Shown here: positions 3,260 through 52,241 of the stretch, piece after piece
How the letters are laid out: every line of letters starts with the position of its first letter
How positions within the stretch are numbered: the stretch's first letter is position 1
IMG/VR virus record: IMGVR_UViG_3300033049_000041
Coordinates: 1 to 64,000 of that record
Strand: one strand, 5' to 3'
DNA: 64,000 nucleotides
Source of the DNA: a virus
Notes under the pieces: model-generated
Told to the model about the DNA's origin: nothing
Seen by the model: the letters and a program-made list of their open reading frames with translations, nothing else
Databases searched by the model: none
Translations under genes and position numbers: made by a program

Positions 3260-4349
3260 TACTTATAGGAGTATTAAATAAATTGTTTACAAATGTTTTA
3301 AACTCTACACCTAAATGTTCTTTATACTCTGCAAAGTCTTTTAATTTATCTTCCACATCAGTTTCTAATTTAGGTAGCATTTTATATTTCAAGTCATGTA
3401 ACTCACTGTAACGTTTAGACCACCTTTTACCAGCAGTATCTCTATCATAGCAATATACAATCTTCTTAAATCGTTTCTTTATATCATTCATTATATATCC
3501 AGGAATATCCATTCCTTCACCTTGAGGTGCTATTGCATTGATACCATTAGCTACTAATACTAATAAATCTTTCATAGAGGATGCAATAACTAATAAATTA
3601 CCCGTTGCAGGTAATTGGTCATAACCTTGTACATTACAATCTTTGATATTTGATTCCCATTTCTCAGCTTTGTTAATTGTTAATGGTTTATATATCTTTA
3701 CTGCTATTATACCTTTACATTCAAATTGATAGCAGTAACATGGATTACTAGGATTGCCTTGGAAGTTATAAGATTCTTGAAAGGTAATTCTATCCCATTT
3801 CCTTTTGAAGTATGAGTTAACTGGGTAAATTTTGTACCTCATCAGTAGATTTAGACTTATACCAAACCGTTTAGTCCAGTAGTCATAATCTATTTGCAAC
3901 CATTTCCTAGTTTTTACTTTATAATGGAATCGTTGCAACTTCAATTTATCTTTAGCTTTTAACACTTGTTTATCTTTCTCAGATAATGTGTTCTTCTTAC
4001 CCTTAATCTTTTGAATATAGTCAGCACGCAATGGAGTGACTCTACTACTTGTTTTAAGCTCTAATCCAAAATCATTATTAATTTGAACTAATGTATTTCT
4101 AAAATCTTTTCCCAATCCTAACATGGCTATCTTAAAGCAGTCTCCGCCATACTCAGGAAAAGAGTTATCAAAAAATATTAAATTACCTTTACTACTGTAT
4201 GCAAAATAACAACCACGTTTACTATCGACTCTAAATGGATTGAAATACTTACTTCTAAATTCAACAGAACTAGGAAAGTATCGTTCCATTATCATTCTCT
4301 GGTCGATTAATCTTAATATATTCTTGGTAGTTAAAGTAAACTCATTCAC
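3204..4349 (-). CDS. DNA primase (TOPRIM, Crassvirales-like)
   Basis: NPFRVD...GGDCF N-terminus, SSMKD, APQGE and YDRDTAG TOPRIM motifs. Confidence 0.8.
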   Translation of the reverse strand: MNEFTLTTKNILRLIDQRMIMERYFPSSVEFRSKYFNPFRVDSKRGCYFAYSSKGNLIFFDNSFPEYGGDCFKIAMLGLGKDFRNTLVQINNDFGLELKTSSRVTPLRADYIQKIKGKKNTLSEKDKQVLKAKDKLKLQRFHYKVKTRKWLQIDYDYWTKRFGISLNLLMRYKIYPVNSYFKRKWDRITFQESYNFQGNPSNPCYCYQFECKGIIAVKIYKPLTINKAEKWESNIKDCNVQGYDQLPATGNLLVIASSMKDLLVLVANGINAIAPQGEGMDIPGYIMNDIKKRFKKIVYCYDRDTAGKRWSKRYSELHDLKYKMLPKLETDVEDKLKDFAEYKEHLGVEFKTFVNNLFNTPISNGNSGKGKRRELKGISLC

Positions 4350-5459: not shown

Positions 5460-5481
5460 AGTATAAACTTATTGAAAGTTT

Positions 5482-9136: not shown

Positions 9137-9682
9137 CTAAATATCTTCAAAGACACTAAAAGTATCAGATGTTTCCTCTAATCCAAACTCATCATCCAAT
9201 AAAACTTCTTCACAATAAGTTAACAAAGTTCTTCTAGTCTCTACTTTACCTTCGTCATTAATGACTCTCTTTTTTATAAAATAGTCAGCTTGTTCTAAGT
9301 AAGTCATATCACCTTTTAGTGATTCAAAATACTTGTCTCTAGCTCTAAATACGTGTTCTTTAGTATAACTCGGTTGCAGCTTAAAGAATTCATCCATATT
9401 ATTGATGCATTTCTCTTTACTACCCATAGCTTTTGCTCGTTTACCTCGCCATTTCTTACGCCAAAGCATAATCCAATCTTCTACAGTCTCATTACTTTTA
9501 CTTGCTACGTCTACTTTATCTAGTTTAGAAAGAATTTCACCTTCTTTTACTTGTACTTCTACATCTTTATTAAACTGAGTAAGAGGATTATACAATGTAA
9601 TAATAAAGCCATCCCCTAAAGGAGATACAATTCTACTTTTGATTAATTCATCTAGCTCCTCTTTAGTGGTCACTAATACCAT
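9137..9682 (-). CDS. Hypothetical protein, possible replication accessory factor
   Basis: 181 aa, abuts dnaB. Confidence 0.7.
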   Translation of the reverse strand: MVLVTTKEELDELIKSRIVSPLGDGFIITLYNPLTQFNKDVEVQVKEGEILSKLDKVDVASKSNETVEDWIMLWRKKWRGKRAKAMGSKEKCINNMDEFFKLQPSYTKEHVFRARDKYFESLKGDMTYLEQADYFIKKRVINDEGKVETRRTLLTYCEEVLLDDEFGLEETSDTFSVFEDI

Positions 9683-29285: not shown

Positions 29286-29436
29286 TGAAGAACATGGGAT
29301 TCGAACCCACAACCCTTCGAAGCAGGTGTCTAGCCATCAGAATATCCCAATTTGGAATGTTCTAGTGGAATATATGAGAGTTGAACTCACGTTACCCGAC
29401 TAATACCGAATGCTCTACCATTGAAGCTACTTCCTC
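29286..29436 (-). ncRNA. Tandem double tRNA-like RNA with cross-paired acceptor stems
   Basis: Two T arms; GAGGAAG pairs with distal GTTCTTC and internal ATATTCC pairs with GGGATAT. Confidence 0.6.
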
Positions 29437-29441
29437 AGTTG

Positions 29442-29514
29442 TGGAGAAGATGAGACTCGAACTCATATCCTTTTCGTTGCAAACGAAATGCTCAACCAAT
29501 TGAGCTACTTCCCC
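29442..29514 (-). tRNA. tRNA-Ala(TGC)
   Basis: GGGGAAG/CTTCTCC with G3-U70, AC TTTCG-TTTGCAA-CGAAA. Confidence 0.93.
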
Positions 29515-29697
29515 ATAAAATCATCATCCATTTCCAAGTGGAATACTTAGTAAGGCATCAAACATCCTTACACCCTATTTAATAAGTAACTTGATTATCT
29601 TTATCAATTACTATGTTTTAAGTAGCTTACAATAATTAAATGTTCCTTGGCAAACCCTACCTTGGTCGTAGTAATCATCTTCAGTAATGACTATCTC

Positions 29698-30291
29698 TTA
29701 ACTTATAAGTTCTTTATAAGTCATCATTTTTCTTTCATCAAAGTTAAAACTTTTCCTCTTGGACAATAATAGGTAATTGTGTGTACTATAGATAATATGC
29801 CCGTATCCTGCAAAATTAATAATTATATTTTTCAGTTTTAATTGCATTTTATAATCCAATGTTCTATCTATTTCATCTAGTAGAATGATGTTATTCTTTG
29901 TATTTGATTCTTTGAGTTTCGTTAATAATCTCATTAATTGAATTAGAGTAGATTCTCCTTGAGATTTATTACTTCGTTCCATACCACCTAACTTTAGAAA
30001 TGAAGACATATCCATCATAGCAGCTCCATGTGAATCATCTTCAGCAGCAAAGAAACTGTAGAAATTATAATCACCATCTATTTCAAGACAACCTTTAAGT
30101 TCAGTTCTACTAATTAAAAAGTTATTATTTTCTTCCTTATCAAGCATTCTAATTGCAGTTAATAATGTAGTCTTTCCACTACCATTAGTACCACTAATCA
30201 AATTAATCAAGCTATTAAATTCGAATACTTCATCCTTCTTTAGTATTAATTTATCATCGTAAATAACATCTTTAAGAATTGTAATCTTCAT
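29698..30291 (-). CDS. Stand-alone ABC-type ATPase (AAA_21-like)
   Basis: GTNGSGKTT, SQGES, ILLDEID, STH. Confidence 0.8.
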   Translation of the reverse strand: MKITILKDVIYDDKLILKKDEVFEFNSLINLISGTNGSGKTTLLTAIRMLDKEENNNFLISRTELKGCLEIDGDYNFYSFFAAEDDSHGAAMMDMSSFLKLGGMERSNKSQGESTLIQLMRLLTKLKESNTKNNIILLDEIDRTLDYKMQLKLKNIIINFAGYGHIIYSTHNYLLLSKRKSFNFDERKMMTYKELIS

Positions 30292-30477
30292 TTAATCTTT
30301 ATTTAGTTTGTTTAGTAATTAGTTTAACTGCTTTATCATCCTGTAAATCCAATAGTGCTTCCTTAATGTCAGGATGTGTTAAATCATTCTTAGCTAATAT
30401 TCTAGCAAGATAGATTATAGAATCTATAAATCCTATCAACATTCCTTCATCACTTTTACAATCTATTGGTTTATTCA

Positions 30478-30729
30478 TTATGCTATCCTTACGGTACTCT
30501 CTTTCAAGGATTTAATATAAAATCTTTTAAGCATTGTTGCGTATTCCTCATCTTTAAATTCACCACCATTAGCATCTGCTATAGGTATTGGAAATTCATA
30601 CTTTACTTCATTGACTTTAAATGAGTAGAAAAGATTTTCATCTTTAAATCTCATAAACTTAGCCATTCTCTTAGTTCTATCTGCTTCATAAGCAAATTCT
30701 TTTACACTTGGAAATTCTACATTTTCCAT
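30478..30729 (-). CDS. Hypothetical protein
   Basis: 83 aa ORF. Confidence 0.6.
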   Translation of the reverse strand: MENVEFPSVKEFAYEADRTKRMAKFMRFKDENLFYSFKVNEVKYEFPIPIADANGGEFKDEEYATMLKRFYIKSLKESTVRIA

Positions 30730-30774
30730 TACTCTACTCTTTAATAATTCCTTACTTATCTTTCTTTTGTATTG

Positions 30775-30847
30775 TGCGAGTGACAGGTCTCGAACCTGCA
30801 GCCTTCAGATTGGAAATCTATTGCGCTACCAATTGCGCCACACTCGC
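30775..30847 (-). tRNA. tRNA-Gly(TCC)
   Basis: GCGAGTG/CACTCGC, AC ATAGA-TTTCCAA-TCTGA. Confidence 0.9.
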
Positions 30848-30925
30848 TTAATAAGGAGGAGAAAGTAACTTAATCATTATATAGACACGTATTGCATCCT
30901 CCTCCGTTAACTTGAACTATAGTAG

Positions 30926-31010
30926 TACTCCCAGTGGGAGTTGAACCCACACGAACCAATCGGTCCACTGGATTTTAAGTCCAGCATGTCTACCATTCCA
31001 TCATGAGAGC
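30926..31010 (-). tRNA. tRNA-Leu(TAA)
   Basis: AC CTGGA-CTTAAAA-TCCAG, long variable arm, A73. Confidence 0.93.
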
Positions 31011-31017
31011 ATTTGTA

Positions 31018-31470
31018 TTACATTCTATTGTAATAATCTAACCAAAATTCTATATCTTCAAAATCTATAACTGTCAATCTATCTGATTTATTTCCCATTT
31101 TAAAACCAATCTTAAACTGTTCATTTTCAAAGATAACAAATGTAAATCCTTTTAACCAACTATATAAATCTTGTTGTACGAATCCTTTTCTTTTAAAGAA
31201 TGATTCTGCTTTATTTAAGCGAGAAGTTATGTTATGTTGAGGAGAAATTTCCTTAATATTAGGTAAACCACCAACTACTACGTAATGCTCACAACCTTTA
31301 ATCTTCTTTAGTTTAGCAAATCCTTTATCAGGATATGGATGAAACTTATTGTAAATATAGCCATTAGGACTAAGTGATATAGGACCTATTATACTAGCAC
31401 TACCAGCACTTTGTACTATGTAATTGCCCGCTTTATCTAAATCATCATTATCAGTTTTAATTCTACGCAT
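31018..31470 (-). CDS. Hypothetical protein
   Basis: 150 aa ORF. Confidence 0.6.
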   Translation of the reverse strand: MRRIKTDNDDLDKAGNYIVQSAGSASIIGPISLSPNGYIYNKFHPYPDKGFAKLKKIKGCEHYVVVGGLPNIKEISPQHNITSRLNKAESFFKRKGFVQQDLYSWLKGFTFVIFENEQFKIGFKMGNKSDRLTVIDFEDIEFWLDYYNRM

Positions 31471-31820
31471 TATTTCATTTGATTATTATTACCACCCAAT
31501 ATACTATTATTATTTCCTATTAGTATGTTATTATTACCATGTACAGTACAGCTATAACCAGTAACTTTATTGTTATTTCCACTAACATCAATATCATTAC
31601 CTGATACCTTATTATTATTGCCAATAACATGAACATTATTACCTGAGAATGTAGAATTATTCATCTTAACAGTCCTCTTAGACCATTTTCCTAGTTTAAC
31701 GACAGATAACTCCACTTTCTTCTTTAAAGGCTTCTTAGCGTAATTTGTACCACAATAATCACACGTAGTAGCATCTTCTAAGATAGGTGCTGTACAAGCT
31801 AAACATTTTAATATTTCCAT
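31470..31820 (-). CDS. Zinc-ribbon protein with GNNN beta-solenoid repeats
   Basis: CLAC...CDYCG followed by ~7-residue GNNN repeats; start taken at ATG 31820. Confidence 0.7.
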   Translation of the reverse strand: MEILKCLACTAPILEDATTCDYCGTNYAKKPLKKKVELSVVKLGKWSKRTVKMNNSTFSGNNVHVIGNNNKVSGNDIDVSGNNNKVTGYSCTVHGNNNILIGNNNSILGGNNNQMK

Positions 31821-31835
31821 GATTATTATTTTTAG

Positions 31836-31932
31836 TACCAAAAGAAGGACTCGAACCCCCAGTCACTTTACAATCAATTACTAGCACATTGAGTGTTTCA
31901 TAAAGCCGCTTTGCCAATTAGCGTATTTCGGT
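31836..31932 (-). ncRNA. tRNA-like RNA with extended non-canonical anticodon arm
   Basis: ACCGAAA/TTTTGGT-A-CTA, D arm CGCT/AGCG, T arm GGGGG-TTCGAGT-CCTTC, AC stem CTTTA/TAAAG capped by an extra hairpin. Confidence 0.6.
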
Positions 31933-31976
31933 ATGAATTAGAAGGAATCGTATATCCTAGATTCCCTCTAATTTTT

Positions 31977-32230
31977 GTAACTACTAGTATTCAATAGATC
32001 TTTAGCTAAGAGACTCTTGTTCTACCACTGAACTACACGTCCATAGCAAGTAATGAGATGCTTCTAGGCAGTCATTACTCGATTGGTTTCACCCATTTGG
32101 AGCAATCCAATTGAGGACGTGGTGGGAATCGAACCCACGACGTAGAGATTAAGGTATCTATTGACGTTCATAAATGCTTCAATCTAAAGCTTGACTCACA
32201 AAACTAAATCTAAAAGGCTAGTGTTGCTAC
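31977..32230 (-). ncRNA. Circularly permuted tRNA-Lys(CTT)-like RNA opened at the anticodon loop
   Basis: 3' half (32114-32153) precedes 5' half (32007-32042); GGACGTG/CACGTCC acceptor; flanks pair via TCAATAGAT/ATCTATTGA. Confidence 0.78.
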
Positions 32231-32260
32231 ATCTAATGCTAAAGCTTAAAAGTCATATTT

Positions 32261-33058
32261 TTAAAGACCAGCATGAAGGTAATCAAATACCTTCAAACCT
32301 AAGTCTGATTTTTTAATTTCTACTGAGTTAGCTGATTCTAATGCCTCTATTACAGCAGTATATAGAGTATTAAAATTCGTAATAACTCTGGCTCTCAATT
32401 GAATTGAAATCTCACCTGAGAACTTCTGTTCAGTATAAGTACCTGTTTGAACAAGTTCCTTACGAGCAGACTTCACTGGTGTTCTATTTTGCCCAGGATT
32501 GTTATCTTCTAGAATATACTCTGTTGTATTAGTAGTTCTAGTTACACCTTCGTACAACTCATTCTCATAAACACCAGTACGTGCAAAATCCTCATTTTCT
32601 GAAACTTTCCACATTTCATTTTGTTCTCTAACAGGTAAAACCGCATAGATGTCTCTCAACTTAGATTTCTCTAAAGTTGATTTCAATCTCAATAATTCCA
32701 AAGAACTGTATTCACCCCAAGACTTTCCTTCAACTATCAATTCTGCTTTTACAACTCCAGAAGCATTAGTTTTCTCAATAGAGAAAACAATTTCCATGTA
32801 ATTTTCAGCAGATTTAGCCATGTAATCTAGTTGCTCCTTTACAGTAGCTGATACATATTTAGTAGCAATTCTATTCTCTTCAGGTAAATATGGCTCAATC
32901 GCCTTATGAGTTTTCTTTACTCCTAGGTACAATCCTTGCTTATTCTTTAAATTAGATAAAGCATTACTTGTGTTGTTTTTAAATTCACCTTCTCCTCGCT
33001 CTCTAAGTCCAATATATGTACCTAGAGTTTGTTTTCTAATTGGGTTATTATCTGACAT
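32261..33058 (-). CDS. Conserved uncharacterised protein (resembles the family recalled as DUF7873)
   Basis: TNA...A.LIVEG, ELLRLKS.L, LPV, GTYTEQKFSG, ALESAN, GLKVFDYL pattern; family name from memory, needs HMM check. Confidence 0.6.
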   Translation of the reverse strand: MSDNNPIRKQTLGTYIGLRERGEGEFKNNTSNALSNLKNKQGLYLGVKKTHKAIEPYLPEENRIATKYVSATVKEQLDYMAKSAENYMEIVFSIEKTNASGVVKAELIVEGKSWGEYSSLELLRLKSTLEKSKLRDIYAVLPVREQNEMWKVSENEDFARTGVYENELYEGVTRTTNTTEYILEDNNPGQNRTPVKSARKELVQTGTYTEQKFSGEISIQLRARVITNFNTLYTAVIEALESANSVEIKKSDLGLKVFDYLHAGL

Positions 33059-33101
33059 GTTTTTTTACTTTTCCTTTTTACTAAATCTAATTCTAAAATT
33101 G

Positions 33102-33248
33102 GGTGGGTGATCGGACTCGAACCGACGACCTTTCATTTAACAGATGATAATGCGAAGTAACTTATGAAAATCAGTACTACCGTAGTAAACAAATGTATTC
33201 TAAGTATAAAAATGCATAAATGCTCTAACCAACTGAGCTACACCCACC
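33102..33248 (-). ncRNA. Module-bearing tRNA-like RNA 3 (module between D and anticodon arms; His-like acceptor, GTT loop)
   Basis: GGTGGGTG/CACCCACC, D arm GCTC/GAGC, ~70 nt insert with TACTGA...TAAGT-TACTTCG, TCAT-CTGTTAA-ATGA, T arm GTCGG-TTCGAGT-CCGAT. Confidence 0.8.
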
Positions 33249-33253
33249 GTTTG

Positions 33254-33721
33254 TTATTTTAAATATCCAAAATCAATTAACCATTCATCAATCTTCTTAT
33301 ATAAATCTCTAGGTATTTTAATCCTATTATATCTCCATTCTATGTTATTATGAAATGATACAGTATTATCATCAGTGTGAAATGATAAGTAAGGTCTATA
33401 TTCACCATCCAATGCAACATAAGAACGAAATCTAATAATACTACCATTAAAACCAACGTAAGTTTGATTATTACTACCTGACTTAACTTCCGTTACAGTT
33501 CTATTCATACATACTAATTGGGCATGACCAAAACTAGTTAAAGGTTTTCTCTGGTCTGAACAGCAACATAATAATAGTATATAATCCTTTAAGTACATTG
33601 CAGGTATAAAATGCTTAACATGTACAGGTATCTGATACTTATTAAACAATTCTGCACGTTTCTTTATAGAGAAATCTTGATAATTAACAACCGCTATTAA
33701 TTCTGATACTATCTTATTCAT
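33254..33721 (-). CDS. Hypothetical protein
   Basis: 155 aa ORF. Confidence 0.6.
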   Translation of the reverse strand: MNKIVSELIAVVNYQDFSIKKRAELFNKYQIPVHVKHFIPAMYLKDYILLLCCCSDQRKPLTSFGHAQLVCMNRTVTEVKSGSNNQTYVGFNGSIIRFRSYVALDGEYRPYLSFHTDDNTVSFHNNIEWRYNRIKIPRDLYKKIDEWLIDFGYLK

Positions 33722-33734
33722 TTGATGTATTTAG

Positions 33735-33880
33735 CGGAACTATCGGGATTTGAACCCGATAATCTCTGAGTAGACAACCCAGAAAAATTACGAAGTAACA
33801 TAATTAATTAATATTCCGTTGAAAGGAAATGAAGGCAAACTATGACTATACGTAACGCTCAACCATTGAGCATTAGTTCC
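33735..33880 (-). ncRNA. Module-bearing tRNA-like RNA 4 (module between D and anticodon arms; Asp-like)
   Basis: GGAACTA/TAGTTCC-G, insert TTACG...GGAA-TATTAA-TT-AATTATGT-TACTTCGTAA, AC CTGGG-TTGTCTA-CTCAG. Confidence 0.8.
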
Positions 33881-35373: not shown

Positions 35374-35760
35374 CTATAAAGAATTTATAAATTCAGCATG
35401 ATAAGAAGTAACTTCATCTTCAATAAGATGTTTAAATCTACTATGCCAGTATTTATGATGAGTAGGACATAAGGGTATTAAATTTTCTATAGAATTATTA
35501 GTGTGATTTCCATCAAAATGATGTACTTCTACAATATTAGATTCTTTACAAATTACACATGATTTTTCATGTTGTAGAAAACAAGTACTACGATAGCGAG
35601 ATTCTTTCCAATTAGGATTATTCTTACCACTTCTAAAATATGTATTTGAACATGAATGTGAACAAGTAGTTTTCTCTCTTGGAGACCCTTGTTTAGTTTC
35701 AAATTCGTTATCGCATACAGGACAACTTTTAATTATCCTGTTATATACCTTTCTACTCAC
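35374..35760 (-). CDS. HNH endonuclease with N-terminal zinc finger
   Basis: CPVC...TCSHSC, NNPNWK, CVIC...VHHFDGNHTNN...NLIPLCPTHH; likely GTG start 35760 because the listed TTG lies inside the tRNA. Confidence 0.85.
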   Translation of the reverse strand: MSRKVYNRIIKSCPVCDNEFETKQGSPREKTTCSHSCSNTYFRSGKNNPNWKESRYRSTCFLQHEKSCVICKESNIVEVHHFDGNHTNNSIENLIPLCPTHHKYWHSRFKHLIEDEVTSYHAEFINSL

Positions 35761-39578: not shown

Positions 39579-39600
39579 GATAAGTATAGATATTGGTTAG

Positions 39601-39658
39601 TTGCGAGAAAAGGAGTCGAACCTCTACAAAACTGCTCTACCAGTTAAGCTACCTCGCA
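39601..39658 (-). ncRNA. Anticodon-less mini-tRNA (58 nt)
   Basis: TGCGAGG/TCTCGCA-A-CTA, D arm GCTT-AACTGGTA-GAGC, short linker, T arm AGAGG-TTCGACT-CCTTT. Confidence 0.72.
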
Positions 39659-44651: not shown

Positions 44652-44800
44652 TAACAAGCAAACGAAAATACATAGACTGAAAATTAATGTGCCAGATTTA
44701 CTATCTAGTGCCTTAACCATTTGGCTAATTCGGCATGAAGCCAAATACAGGACTCGAACCTATAATACGAAGTAAGTCTATGTTTTAGTATTGCTTGTTA
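44652..44800 (-). ncRNA. Module-bearing RNA 6: circularly permuted tRNA opened at the variable loop
   Basis: TAACAAGCAA-TACTAA-AA-CATAGACT-TACTTCG, then T arm, closed acceptor ATTTGGC-TTCAT-GCCGAAT, D arm, AC CTAGA-TAGTAAA-TCTGG, closed by AGTCTATG and TTGCTTGTTA. Confidence 0.82.
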
Positions 44801-44805
44801 ACTCT

Positions 44806-45822
44806 TTAAACTACATACAAATCTTTTGCAGTTAGTTTTATTTTGTGTTGTTTTACCACATCTTCCCAATCCTTGTAATTGGATGGTGGTAAATATTTAT
44901 TCTCTTTTCTATTATACTCTCCTCTAACTCCAGTGATTTGCCACATAGAATCTGTTGCTGCAGATTTAACTCCATCATCAGTTCCTCTAGTTAATGAAAA
45001 GAAATCATTTCCTGGAAAAGATACATGATCCCATGCAACTAAACTAAAGAAACTAATACCTTCATCAGGTCTAAATAACTGAGGTCTAGGTTGTTTACTA
45101 TTCAAATAAGGTCTAGATGCAAATAATGTTTTACCTCCAATTACCCAACTCTGGTCAACACCAACAGAATACGGATCGTACCATATCCCGAGTATGTTAG
45201 TCCACTTAGTTTTATAGTCTTCTAGTAACTCTAGTAACGTTGCTAACAGCAAGGTATGAACTTCTGCTTTATGTTTCCCTGCAAACTGACCACATCCAAT
45301 TCCAGGAATAGTCACCATTGCAGGAACTCCTTGCTTATTAGCCTTTTCACTAATGTAAGTAAATACTGGAATAAGCTTTTCTCTAACCAATTCTTTATAC
45401 AACTCAGGTACTACTTTACCGTTCTTAACTATATCATAATCTACTGGAGTAATTGTACCAGCAGCTCTAAGAAGTGGTCCAGGAACGTAAACTAATGTAC
45501 CATGAAAAGGTGTTCCGTGTAATGCTGGATTCTGATGTTTACCATCATCATAAATAGTCACTGGAACAGCAACACTTATATTACCAAGCACTTTTAGTTC
45601 CGCATTAGTCCAATCAGAGCCATCACCTTTAATTTCAGATTCAGCAAACATTTCTGGTTGCTTTGTCTCAAGTAGAAAATCTAACTTAGATTCCTTAGAT
45701 AACGGTATTCTTGCCATGCAGGGAAATAACGTAGTATTAGAAAAATTAGTTCCAGCATCACAAAGACTAAAATTCTCTAATCTTTGCATATTCTTCTTAG
45801 AGGTAATTATTGTATAATTCAT
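44806..45822 (-). CDS. MavL/Larg1-like macrodomain (putative ADP-ribosyl glycohydrolase)
   Basis: PGIGCGQFAG loop and VAWDHVSFPGNDF...TDDGVK match the Legionella MavL-type catalytic region as recalled. Confidence 0.7.
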   Translation of the reverse strand: MNYTIITSKKNMQRLENFSLCDAGTNFSNTTLFPCMARIPLSKESKLDFLLETKQPEMFAESEIKGDGSDWTNAELKVLGNISVAVPVTIYDDGKHQNPALHGTPFHGTLVYVPGPLLRAAGTITPVDYDIVKNGKVVPELYKELVREKLIPVFTYISEKANKQGVPAMVTIPGIGCGQFAGKHKAEVHTLLLATLLELLEDYKTKWTNILGIWYDPYSVGVDQSWVIGGKTLFASRPYLNSKQPRPQLFRPDEGISFFSLVAWDHVSFPGNDFFSLTRGTDDGVKSAATDSMWQITGVRGEYNRKENKYLPPSNYKDWEDVVKQHKIKLTAKDLYVV

Positions 45823-48734: not shown

Positions 48735-48898
48735 AAGGGAGCAAACAAAGCGATTCAAACTGTAATGTAATAAGCTAAATCCCAATTCTAGTGTGTCTAC
48801 CAGTTCCACCACCGCCCATTTAATTGACATACTGGTCGGGCGGGAAGGATTCGAACCTCCAAATACGAAGTAAGTTTGAAAATTAGTATTGCTCCCTT
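48735..48898 (-). ncRNA. Module-bearing RNA 7: circularly permuted tRNA with internal ACCA and linker
   Basis: AAGGGAGCAA-TACTAA-TT-TTCAAACT-TACTTCG, T arm GGAGG-TTCGAAT-CCTTC, CCGCCCG-A-CCA, 14 nt linker, TGGGCGG, Leu-type D arm, AC CTAGA-ATTGGGA-TTTAG, closed by AGTTTGAA and TTGCTCCCTT. Confidence 0.82.
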
Positions 48899-51754: not shown

Positions 51755-51857
51755 ATTTGTATCTTAAGTTAATAAGCTTTGTTTATACCCAACTTAATGG
51801 TTCCAGGAATAATTTAGACGGGTTTCCTGATTTCTTTACCGTACTTATTAACCATTG

Positions 51858-52241
51858 TGGAGCTGCGGGGAGTCGAACCCCGGTGTTCCCACTTTCAATT
51901 AAAATTTCTACAAGTTTAGTAGTATCTTTAGATAGTTCTTCTCGTTGGGTGATTCTACGTACCTTCCTGAGTATAGTTACTGATATACCATACAAGCCAT
52001 AACTTCTTGTAATCCTTTTCCGAGTAATCGTGTTCGTGTATAACGGAGCAGTAATATCGGAGTCAACAGGCTCTACATTATTTGACGAGTAAGGTTAGTC
52101 GAAACTAATCTTAAGCCGCCATACGAACTGGTGCATAAGCTCCATCTAAGGTTTACCTTCAATATTTATTAATCGCTTATCAAGCCTCAGCGATACTTGC
52201 TTGTTCTAACATCTAAGTGGGAGTCGAATCCAGTCAGCCCC
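51858..52241 (-). ncRNA. ssrA: tmRNA
   Basis: 5' GGGGCTGACTGGATTCGAC, 3' CGGGG-TTCGACT-CCCCG-CAGCTCC-A with G3-U70; tag ORF 52111-52143 encodes (A)GAYAPVRMAA-stop. Confidence 0.93.

Follow-up and report, generated by a model that had tools for sequence, protein, structure and literature searches.

A possible two-headed RNA derived from tRNA, with a permuted inner body, in the tRNA gene array of a phage

In a stretch of phage DNA of 64,000 nucleotides (nt), referred to here as the window (positions 1 to 64,000 of the IMG/VR record IMGVR_UViG_3300033049_000041), we have analyzed an element of 151 nt that is located on the minus strand (29436–29286) and consists of two units of the size of a transfer RNA (tRNA) plus a linker. 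The reading that we favor, and in which we have moderate confidence, is that the whole element encodes a single non-decoding RNA derived from tRNA, with two heads that would mimic tRNA. It may be described most simply as a shell derived from tRNA-Ala in which a circularly permuted tRNA-like body would take the place of the anticodon loop. The structure appears striking and readily testable, but it rests on a single sequence.

Pairing between the two units

Unit 1 (29436–29366, 71 nt), the linker (29365–29349, 17 nt) and unit 2 (29348–29286, 63 nt) follow a canonical tRNA-Ala(UGC) gene located directly upstream (29441–29514, minus strand, anticodon tgc; detected by ARAGORN and scoring 71.8 bits with the Rfam tRNA model). 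The original prediction, made from the sequence alone, had described two tRNA-like units in tandem just past this gene, and re-reading of the minus strand gave the same arrangement with a spacer of 5 nt. It had also proposed that neither unit pairs its own acceptor well and that the acceptor strands are swapped, and this was borne out. Within the units the acceptor strands pair at only 4/7 positions in unit 1 and 5/7 in unit 2, with G-T in three of the latter; the own acceptor stems of the canonical tRNAs of this phage (n = 22) have 6–7 of the seven pairs. Across the units, by contrast, GAGGAAG (unit 1) pairs with GTTCTTC (unit 2) at six of seven positions (five Watson-Crick pairs and G3-T70, with a G7.G66 mismatch), and GGGATAT (unit 2) pairs with ATATTCC (unit 1) at all seven (six Watson-Crick pairs and G3-T70). 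Both hybrid stems carry G3-U70 and A73 followed by a CTA trailer, as had been predicted. G3-U70 and A73 are identity elements for alanine.

The swapped pairing extends to the anticodon-type stems. TTCGG (29410–29406) pairs with TCGAA (29320–29316) and CGGGT (29398–29394) with ACCTG (29327–29323), both 5/5 across the units, and these stems sit at, or adjoin, the canonical positions. Of the "acceptor-swapped tandem dimer" originally proposed, the swapped pairing thus stands and now includes these stems, but "tandem dimer" is better replaced by a shell with a permuted body.

We compared this complementarity with what could be expected by chance. When the acceptor strands of the 22 canonical phage tRNAs were swapped among themselves, none of the 462 ordered combinations paired at 7/7 and 21 did so at 6/7; for 7/7 at a fixed register the expectation from composition is 0.0015. 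As for the trailer, the background frequency of CTA on the minus strand is 0.021, but among the 25 canonical tRNA genes 13 have it directly behind the discriminator (and almost all the 25 have C at position 74), so that both 3' ends of the element look like tRNA 3' ends. CCA is not encoded at either of them.

The outer head (A) starts with the acceptor 5' strand GAGGAAG (29430–29436, minus strand as are all the parts of the element; 6/7 with 29287–29293), which differs from the GGGGAAG of tRNA-Ala at position 2 only. In the following region (29406–29429) are U8 A9, a D arm (GCT[T]C AATGGTA GAGC) whose stem has an additional T, A26 and the stem strand TTCGG; this region resembles the 5' halves of two tRNA-Ala, the adjacent one and that of Streptomyces phage Bmoc. 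The outer and inner stems are connected by junction 1 (TATTAGT, 29399–29405), which was delimited by reading the sequence. When the fold is constrained, the AG of this junction pairs with the CT of junction 2, and small bulges remain. Next comes the 3' part of the inner head (B) (29366–29398), i.e., CGGGT, AAC, a T arm (GTGAG TTCAACT CTCAT), the acceptor 3' strand ATATTCC and the discriminator A. The T arm (29390–29374) is perfect and was assigned to no tRNA by ARAGORN. The 7/7 partner of ATATTCC is located downstream of it, at 29342–29348, and the order of the inner head is therefore permuted. Between both strands the linker CTAGAACATTCCAAATT (29349–29365), which opens with a CTA trailer and includes a second copy of ATTCCA, closes the inner acceptor stem. 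The 5' part of the inner head (29321–29348) comprises GGGATAT, a short D-like region with GG (TCTGATGGCTAGAC) that resembles the D region (GGTAGACAC) of a permuted unit at 48,8xx, ACCTG and junction 2 (CT). The element ends with the 3' part of the outer head (29286–29320), formed by TCGAA, the variable loop GGGTT, a T arm (GTGGG TTCGAAT CCCAT), GTTCTTC and A, behind which is a CTA (29283–29285), the same trailer as in the canonical tRNA genes.

Between the acceptor strand and position 39 a tRNA requires 31 nt and unit 2 has 21, so it has no anticodon arm of its own. The junctions between the stems measure 7 and 2 nt; their flanks can be joined into 7 nt in eight ways, which were worked out by hand, and U33 results from none of them. 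Therefore, these 9 nt cannot supply an anticodon loop of 7 nt with U33, whether the RNA is left intact or cut and rejoined, and the element cannot read codons. A spliceable, intron-bearing or split tRNA-Ala was discarded on this account, given that the U33 loop is impossible. We also discarded a protein-coding role, for which the sole candidate was a frame of 40 codons starting with TTG on the opposite strand.

Ancestry and compensatory changes

The tRNA-Ala at 29441–29514 is likely the source of both heads. In a blastn comparison of the element with GenBank phages, the outer 3' half alone gave matches; over ~30 nt it is 90–93% identical to the 3' ends of genes annotated as tRNA-Ala in Streptomyces phages. 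When aligned to the tRNA-Ala of Streptomyces phage Bmoc the joined outer halves scored 86, compared to 71.5 for unit 1 and 70.5 for unit 2. We have used the acceptor stem of the neighboring tRNA-Ala (GGGGAAG/CTTCTCC) as the reference to classify the changes. In the outer stem G2-C71 has become A-T, compensated across the units, and G7-C66 has become G.G and is broken. In the inner stem the pairs 4-69, 5-68 and 7-66 are changed on both strands with pairing kept. G1-C72 and G3-T70 are retained in both heads. The four doubly changed pairs (2-71 in the outer stem; 4-69, 5-68 and 7-66 in the inner one) are all mismatched when the acceptor strands are read within each unit. This compensation is the strongest argument that selection may have kept the cross-unit helices, provided that both stems descend from tRNA-Ala. 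Such a descent is plausible for the inner 3' part, judging from its T stem (GTGAG/CTCAT, similar to the ATGAG/CTCAT of tRNA-Ala), and unproven for the inner 5' part.

Folding energies, RNA finders and search for relatives

Several results weigh against a single two-headed RNA. The folding check was unfavorable, with energy models preferring local alternatives to the swapped fold. For the 151–154 nt, RNAfold gave an optimum of -39.6 kcal/mol, made of local alternatives, while -32.0 kcal/mol was the best value when the two cross-unit acceptor stems and the two T arms were retained (-31.2 with all the cross-unit helices enforced). The swapped fold is therefore 7.6 kcal/mol above the minimum, and the pair probabilities of its helices are below 0.06. 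Constraining the 22 canonical phage tRNAs to the cloverleaf costs only 0–1.9 kcal/mol (mean 0.37), hence the gap of the element exceeds the usual noise of tRNA folding. The folding energy of the whole sequence shows no excess over chance either (z = -0.51; 61 of 200 shuffles were as good). The local competitors are a hairpin between the second ATTCCA copy of the linker and GGGAT, the pairing of GAAGGG with TTCTTC, and ATTCGG/TCGGGT. The alternative pairing of unit 2 that had already been pointed out (AGAAC/GTTCT) also exists. The Rfam tRNA model (RF00005) has no match in 29283–29436, either at the gathering level (29 bits) or at E ≤ 10, and ARAGORN found no tRNA in the element by default and three conflicting parses with relaxed settings. 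In intron mode with default settings it found no tRNA, and its search for transfer-messenger RNA (tmRNA; option -m) found none. No homologue was found in GenBank phages, IMG/VR, one metagenome and prokaryote genomes, and there is therefore no covariation between species. In addition, the pattern of compensation depends on the assumed descent of both heads from tRNA-Ala, the T stem of unit 1, so close to that of tRNA-Ala, would fit a simple tandem duplication, and the G.G at 7-66, the extra T in the outer D stem and an inner D stem of 2–3 base pairs (bp) could be signs of decay.

The search for relatives was carried out at several levels. With blastn against GenBank phages, the region 28700–33500 and the element alone retrieved generic tRNA matches only. 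Pattern scans of IMG/VR for the element, for the class-C module or for the arrangement of tRNA-Ala plus element gave 0 matches. A broader IMG/VR pattern (an Ala-type D arm with a T loop 90–120 nt further on) retrieved at least 120 loci (L016–L135), 1.13 Mb altogether; among these listed matches, a script for the nested architecture returned this window and three false positives, rejected for a register shift (L116) or the lack of D arms (L073 and L081). The covariance model R1, run over the same 1.13 Mb of IMG/VR tRNA arrays, recovered ordinary tRNAs with the insert skipped or tRNAs with other inserts. The scan of the metagenome with alignment A1 yielded weak loci only (L010–L012), and the pattern scan of prokaryote genomes a single chance match within coding DNA. 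Neighboring and backbone genes were used as well. The open reading frame (ORF) of a neighboring ATPase has no relative in IMG/VR and has relatives in ENA only (P0002–P0004); none of the four records tested with relatives of the PolA protein (46–50% identity, only 23% for L008) had a tRNA match; and for the Ro60-like protein described below no relative was found in IMG/VR by the method used, its best relative in GenBank (LR745206) having no tRNA nearby. Full-text searches of the literature gave no published account of a two-headed or nested permuted tRNA-like phage RNA; the supplementary tables of YrlA RNAs in PMC4201824 may list phage RNAs.

Alternative explanations

The element could be debris devoid of function, either a pair of tandem copies of tRNA-Ala in decay or a scar left by recombination between tRNA genes, with a complementarity that is in part inherited and in part due to chance. 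We consider this unlikely. The 5' half and T stem of unit 1 are similar to the neighboring tRNA-Ala and the 3' half of unit 2 to phage tRNA-Ala genes, and further points in favor of debris are the defects (G7.G66, the extra T of the D stem, the 10-nt shortfall of unit 2 and the missing anticodon loop), the rejection of both units by the tRNA finders, the lack of a homologue in the collections searched and the energetically unfavored fold. There are, moreover, other split or interrupted tRNA genes in the window, such as that suggested by the T arm at 35374. However, inheritance cannot explain the inner stem: at three of its seven pairs both strands depart from tRNA-Ala, and these strands belong to different units. 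None of the 462 control cross-pairs reached 7/7. Both T arms and both trailers are intact, and random decay should not also preserve two 5-bp stems across the units. That each unit is a weak tRNA of its own appears very unlikely. Unit 1 would then have a 4/7 acceptor and a non-standard loop, and unit 2 would be a truncated tRNA of 63 nt with the loop CTTCGAA (nominally UCG), which does look like a C32-U33...A37-A38 anticodon loop. Relaxed ARAGORN indeed proposes for unit 1 a tRNA of 71 nt whose anticodon has 4 bases, and RNAfold gives it a cloverleaf-like fold at -11.9 kcal/mol with the ATTCGG/TCGGGT hairpin. But the own acceptor stems reach 4/7 and 5/7 only, the stem flanking CTTCGAA is 3/5 and leaves no variable loop, neither unit has an Rfam tRNA match at E ≤ 10, and as monomers they are predicted to be ~10 kcal/mol less stable than the dimer.

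This last figure comes from a calculation in which the linker was removed. The optimum of the two-piece heterodimer was -36.7 kcal/mol, against -26.2 for the separate monomers summed. The inner acceptor helix is present in this optimum, above which the fully swapped dimer lies by 3.2 kcal/mol. The advantage over the monomers speaks for a further reading, the full model of the original prediction, to which we give a low probability and in which RNase P would cut before GGGATAT and the 3' end would be trimmed after ATATTCC-A. The linker would be lost, two pieces would be held by four intermolecular helices, both heads would receive CCA and be charged with alanine by the host alanyl-tRNA synthetase (AlaRS), and the drifted stems would force the pairing between chains. 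The product could work as an alanyl carrier or donor, or as a decoy for AlaRS and EF-Tu, that having no anticodon would be safe from anticodon nucleases. G3-U70 and A73 on both stems, the C-T-A trailer at both 3' ends and the T preceding both 5' strands are in line with it, as is the YrlA RNA of Mycobacterium smegmatis, which has the same build and is described as cut by RNase P and CCA-bearing (PMC4201824). On the other hand, the outer head has A2-U71 and the 7-66 mismatch, and the inner G3-U70 may be plain inheritance from tRNA-Ala. Other permuted units of the phage have sealed or non-alanine acceptor stems, so that charging is no general theme in this phage, and the 85-kb record, which is 41% complete, has no match to Fem-type (PF02388) or Acetyltransf_6 (PF13480) transferases. 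We give very little credence to a role as a mere processing signal, in which the tRNA shapes would recruit RNase P and RNase Z to the operon transcript (tRNA punctuation) and the excised RNA would be idle. The RNA genes are tightly packed, with spacers of 5 and 6 nt around the element, which is in line with such a role, but the flanking canonical tRNAs already supply these sites and the two interlocked heads would be left unexplained.

Proposed structure and mode of action

According to the reading that we favor, a single RNA with two heads, the outer 5' and 3' parts would together make up an alanine-type tRNA, with its acceptor, D and T arms, down to the anticodon-type stem. The inner body would follow the order stem strand, T arm, acceptor 3' strand, 17-nt linker, acceptor 5' strand, D-like region and stem strand. 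The anticodon-type stems could stack on each other, giving a rod of ~12 bp that is interrupted by small bulges and bears an L-shaped head at each end. This RNA would be transcribed together with tRNA-Ala in the phage tRNA operon, and its outer ends would be trimmed by RNase P and the tRNA 3' end machinery. As a tRNA look-alike it might then bind or divert proteins that recognize tRNAs, the candidate targets being AlaRS, the CCA-adding enzyme, modification enzymes and host toxins that attack tRNA ends. The inner acceptor loop might open, but this is unnecessary here; its opening, followed by CCA addition and double alanylation, is speculative, the YrlA of M. smegmatis being a precedent for the cleavage and the CCA addition only.

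Genomic context

The window is part of an IMG/VR record of 85,231 bp, with a GC content of 32% and a CheckV completeness of 41%. The only public run containing the stretch is a seawater metagenome, and a Logan contig of 172,581 nt covers it; no variants were found within the element across the metagenome contigs compared. The phage backbone is represented by genes for a family A DNA polymerase, a DnaB-like helicase, an ATP-dependent ligase and a clamp loader. All the RNA genes of the window are on the minus strand. ARAGORN detected 25 tRNAs and a tmRNA, and Rfam three further tRNA matches of unusual length. One of the tRNAs (26121–26192, minus strand) has the anticodon UUA and would read the stop codon UAA. 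The tmRNA is an ordinary one-piece molecule (51857–52241); since the phage encodes it, the host must be a bacterium.

The tRNA-Ala and the element belong to one tightly packed row of RNA genes. In the direction of the minus strand there is tRNA-Ala (29514–29441), a spacer of 5 nt, the element, a spacer of 6 nt and a tRNA-shaped RNA (29279–29118). This next RNA gene has tRNA-type ends (a 5-bp acceptor, a T arm CGGGG TTCGATT CCTTG and an A-CTA trailer), an interior of ~105 nt and a 5-bp D-like stem (GTGCC/GGTAC).

An ORF of 610 amino acids (53048–54880, minus strand), located immediately before the tmRNA on its upstream side, codes for a distant relative of the Ro60/TROVE proteins. Its match to Pfam TROVE is weak (14.8 bits, below the cut-off), and by tblastn it has 21–31% identity to proteins of Streptomyces and Vibrio phages that are annotated as Ro-like or TROVE. 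It is ~23.6 kb away from the element, within the same strand-oriented region of RNA genes. Another ORF inside the tRNA region (44806–45822, minus strand) strongly matches the MavL macrodomain family (PF24754, E 1.3e-94), and a DUF7873 gene is found at 32261–33058.

Other tRNA-like RNAs in this phage and elsewhere

We scanned the window for T arms made of a 5-bp stem and a TTCRANN loop and found 42 on the minus strand versus 2 on the plus strand. Fifteen were outside the called tRNAs (16 counting those at 5481 and 1646, which are inside ORFs), and two more were located beyond the window. This strand bias and the uncalled T arms indicate that the phage has many non-canonical tRNA-like genes. Three other permuted units with 7/7 acceptor stems, with T arms at 48860, 44763 and 32138, were found in the window, and in the first of them the offset from the T arm to the 5' strand is 42 nt, the same as in the inner head. 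The element lacks the closing stem that two of them share.

Two of these units, at 48735–48898 and 44652–44800 (both on the minus strand), consist of T arm, acceptor stem, D arm and anticodon-type arm. They share flanking motifs (AGCAATACTAA ... ACTTACTTCGTATT) and a closing stem, in which the differences between the two are compensatory. CCA is encoded in one of them, whose linker measures 17 nt with the CCA included; the other has a sealed loop of 5 nt. The third (32034–32170, minus strand) is a permuted tRNA-like gene directly downstream of the DUF7873 gene, with a 7/7 acceptor stem, CACGTCC and GGACGTG being separated by ~70 nt. There are also tRNA shells with inserts of 23–85 nt, by the counts of the callers, in or near the anticodon region (33102–33247, 33734–33880 and 31835–31932, minus strand); two of them scored 45.2 and 38.4 bits with Rfam, and ARAGORN in intron mode named them Asn, Ile and Ile. 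A mini tRNA-like gene of 58–61 nt (39598–39658, minus strand) has no anticodon arm and scored 40.9 bits with Rfam, and an unassigned T arm was found at 35374, near a tRNA-Pro gene. Beyond the window, at 72140–72402 of the record (minus strand), are two long-insert tRNA shells with the motif AGCAGCAATAC between them, which ARAGORN in intron mode fuses into one "tRNA-His" with an intron of 180 nt.

Similar units could be seen in other phages. Among the matches listed from the IMG/VR tRNA arrays, 45 of 246 unassigned T arms had a 7/7 downstream partner; examined by eye, about half of these 45 seemed to be genuine permuted units and the remainder chance matches. Many of the 7/7 units in the same set are just behind a CAGCAA-type motif or a TTACTTCG motif. 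The rnaD of T4 (2054–2172 of locus L013, minus strand) has ACAGCAG near its 3' end, which recalls the CAGCAA motif and may be a coincidence. In one of the IMG/VR arrays (L133), two paralogous shells (3713–3871 and 9379–9549, minus strand) have the anticodon loop replaced by an insert of ~86–95 nt with a second acceptor-like stem (7/7) and a T arm in normal order; both shells end in the same C-CTAA junction. Judging from these sequences, permuted tRNA-like units on a shared "handle" and tRNA shells bearing inserts are common in phage tRNA arrays, and this phage seems to carry an entire collection of non-coding RNAs derived from tRNA, to which the element belongs.

Implications

The tRNA clusters of phages are usually interpreted as a supply for codon usage or as spares against host defenses. 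This window, with ~15 non-canonical tRNA-like genes plus the gene of a Ro60-like protein, suggests a second use of the tRNA shape. The element would be the cleanest case, as it has two complete acceptor/elbow modules with the marks of alanine and has lost all means of decoding. If the favored reading is true, it would provide a compact and testable substrate to study the roles of tRNA-shaped decoys during infection, for example as a sponge for AlaRS, for the CCA-adding enzyme or for toxins that attack tRNA ends, or as a carrier of alanine for a non-ribosomal reaction. It would also illustrate a simple route to heterodimeric or nested RNAs, in which copies arise by duplication and their acceptor stems then drift in a compensatory manner, and would be a warning for annotation, since "tandem degenerate tRNAs" may be single structured RNAs. 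Should the element be debris, it would still be a useful example of a false positive for tRNA and Y-RNA finders.

Comparison with known systems

Among the known tRNA-like RNAs, YrlA (RF02553) has the order T arm, loop-closed acceptor stem and D arm that is also found in the inner head, together with a stem formed by the two ends of the latter. In the inner head the acceptor loop consists of a 7/7 stem closed by the 17-nt linker and the discriminator. The YrlA of M. smegmatis is a permuted tRNA mimic that RNase P cuts in vitro at the predicted site and that is cleaved and receives CCA in vivo, and Chen et al. (2014) credit its 7-bp acceptor stem for this processing (PMC4201824). The inner head has an acceptor stem of this same length. 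The YrlA model scored 22.5 bits on the element, with a cut-off of 69, over a span that covers the T arm of tRNA-Ala and the D arm of unit 1; this weak match is a false positive of the "dimeric tRNA" kind about which Chen et al. warn (PMC4201824). YrlA is encoded next to a Ro60/Rsr gene; in this phage the ORF of the Ro60-like protein, whose TROVE score is below the cut-off, is ~23.6 kb from the element. TROVE proteins with a tRNA-like partner have been described in some jumbo phages (Iyer et al., 2021; PMC7824862). However, the ends of YrlA form the helix that binds Ro60, whereas those of the element form an acceptor/T/D shell of the tRNA-Ala type with free acceptor ends.

Two-piece tmRNA has the alanine identity G3-U70, no anticodon and a permuted order, with a linker that is removed between the acceptor strands. 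The element likewise has G3-U70, no anticodon, a permuted gene order and a linker between the acceptor 3' and 5' strands, but it has no tag reading frame and no pseudoknots, and its scores with the tmRNA models are low (10.3 bits versus a cut-off of 47 for tmRNA_permuted, RF04321, and 12.2 versus 84 for beta_tmRNA). Membership in the YrlA or tmRNA families was consequently rejected on the model scores and the absence of the Ro60 helix, the tag frame and the pseudoknots. The permuted and split tRNA genes of the red alga Cyanidioschyzon merolae and archaea mature through a bulge-helix-bulge splice site into working tRNAs, which have an anticodon loop of 7 nt. Like them, the element has the 3' half upstream of the 5' half and a linker between the acceptor ends; unlike them, it lacks a 3-4-3 bulge-helix-bulge and has instead junctions of 7 and 2 nt between two 5-bp stems, from which no U33 loop can be made.

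The stable RNAs C and D of T4 (species 1 and 2; NC_000866) have ~120–140 nt and are located directly behind a tRNA gene within a cluster, and rnaC ends in a perfect T arm. Inspected by eye, they have neither a two-headed or permuted architecture nor sequence similarity to the element. The tRNA shells with inserts, such as those of L133 and that at 33102–33247, have a full acceptor/D/T shell and an insert of 80–90 nt in the anticodon region, as in the element. They differ from it in that the inner domain of the L133 shells is in normal order and they have no G3-U70, and the insert of the other shells of this window is a different module. Overall, the element would be a tRNA-mimic RNA built from a permuted tRNA domain, and by analogy it may work most like the tRNA-like domains of YrlA and of (two-piece) tmRNA.

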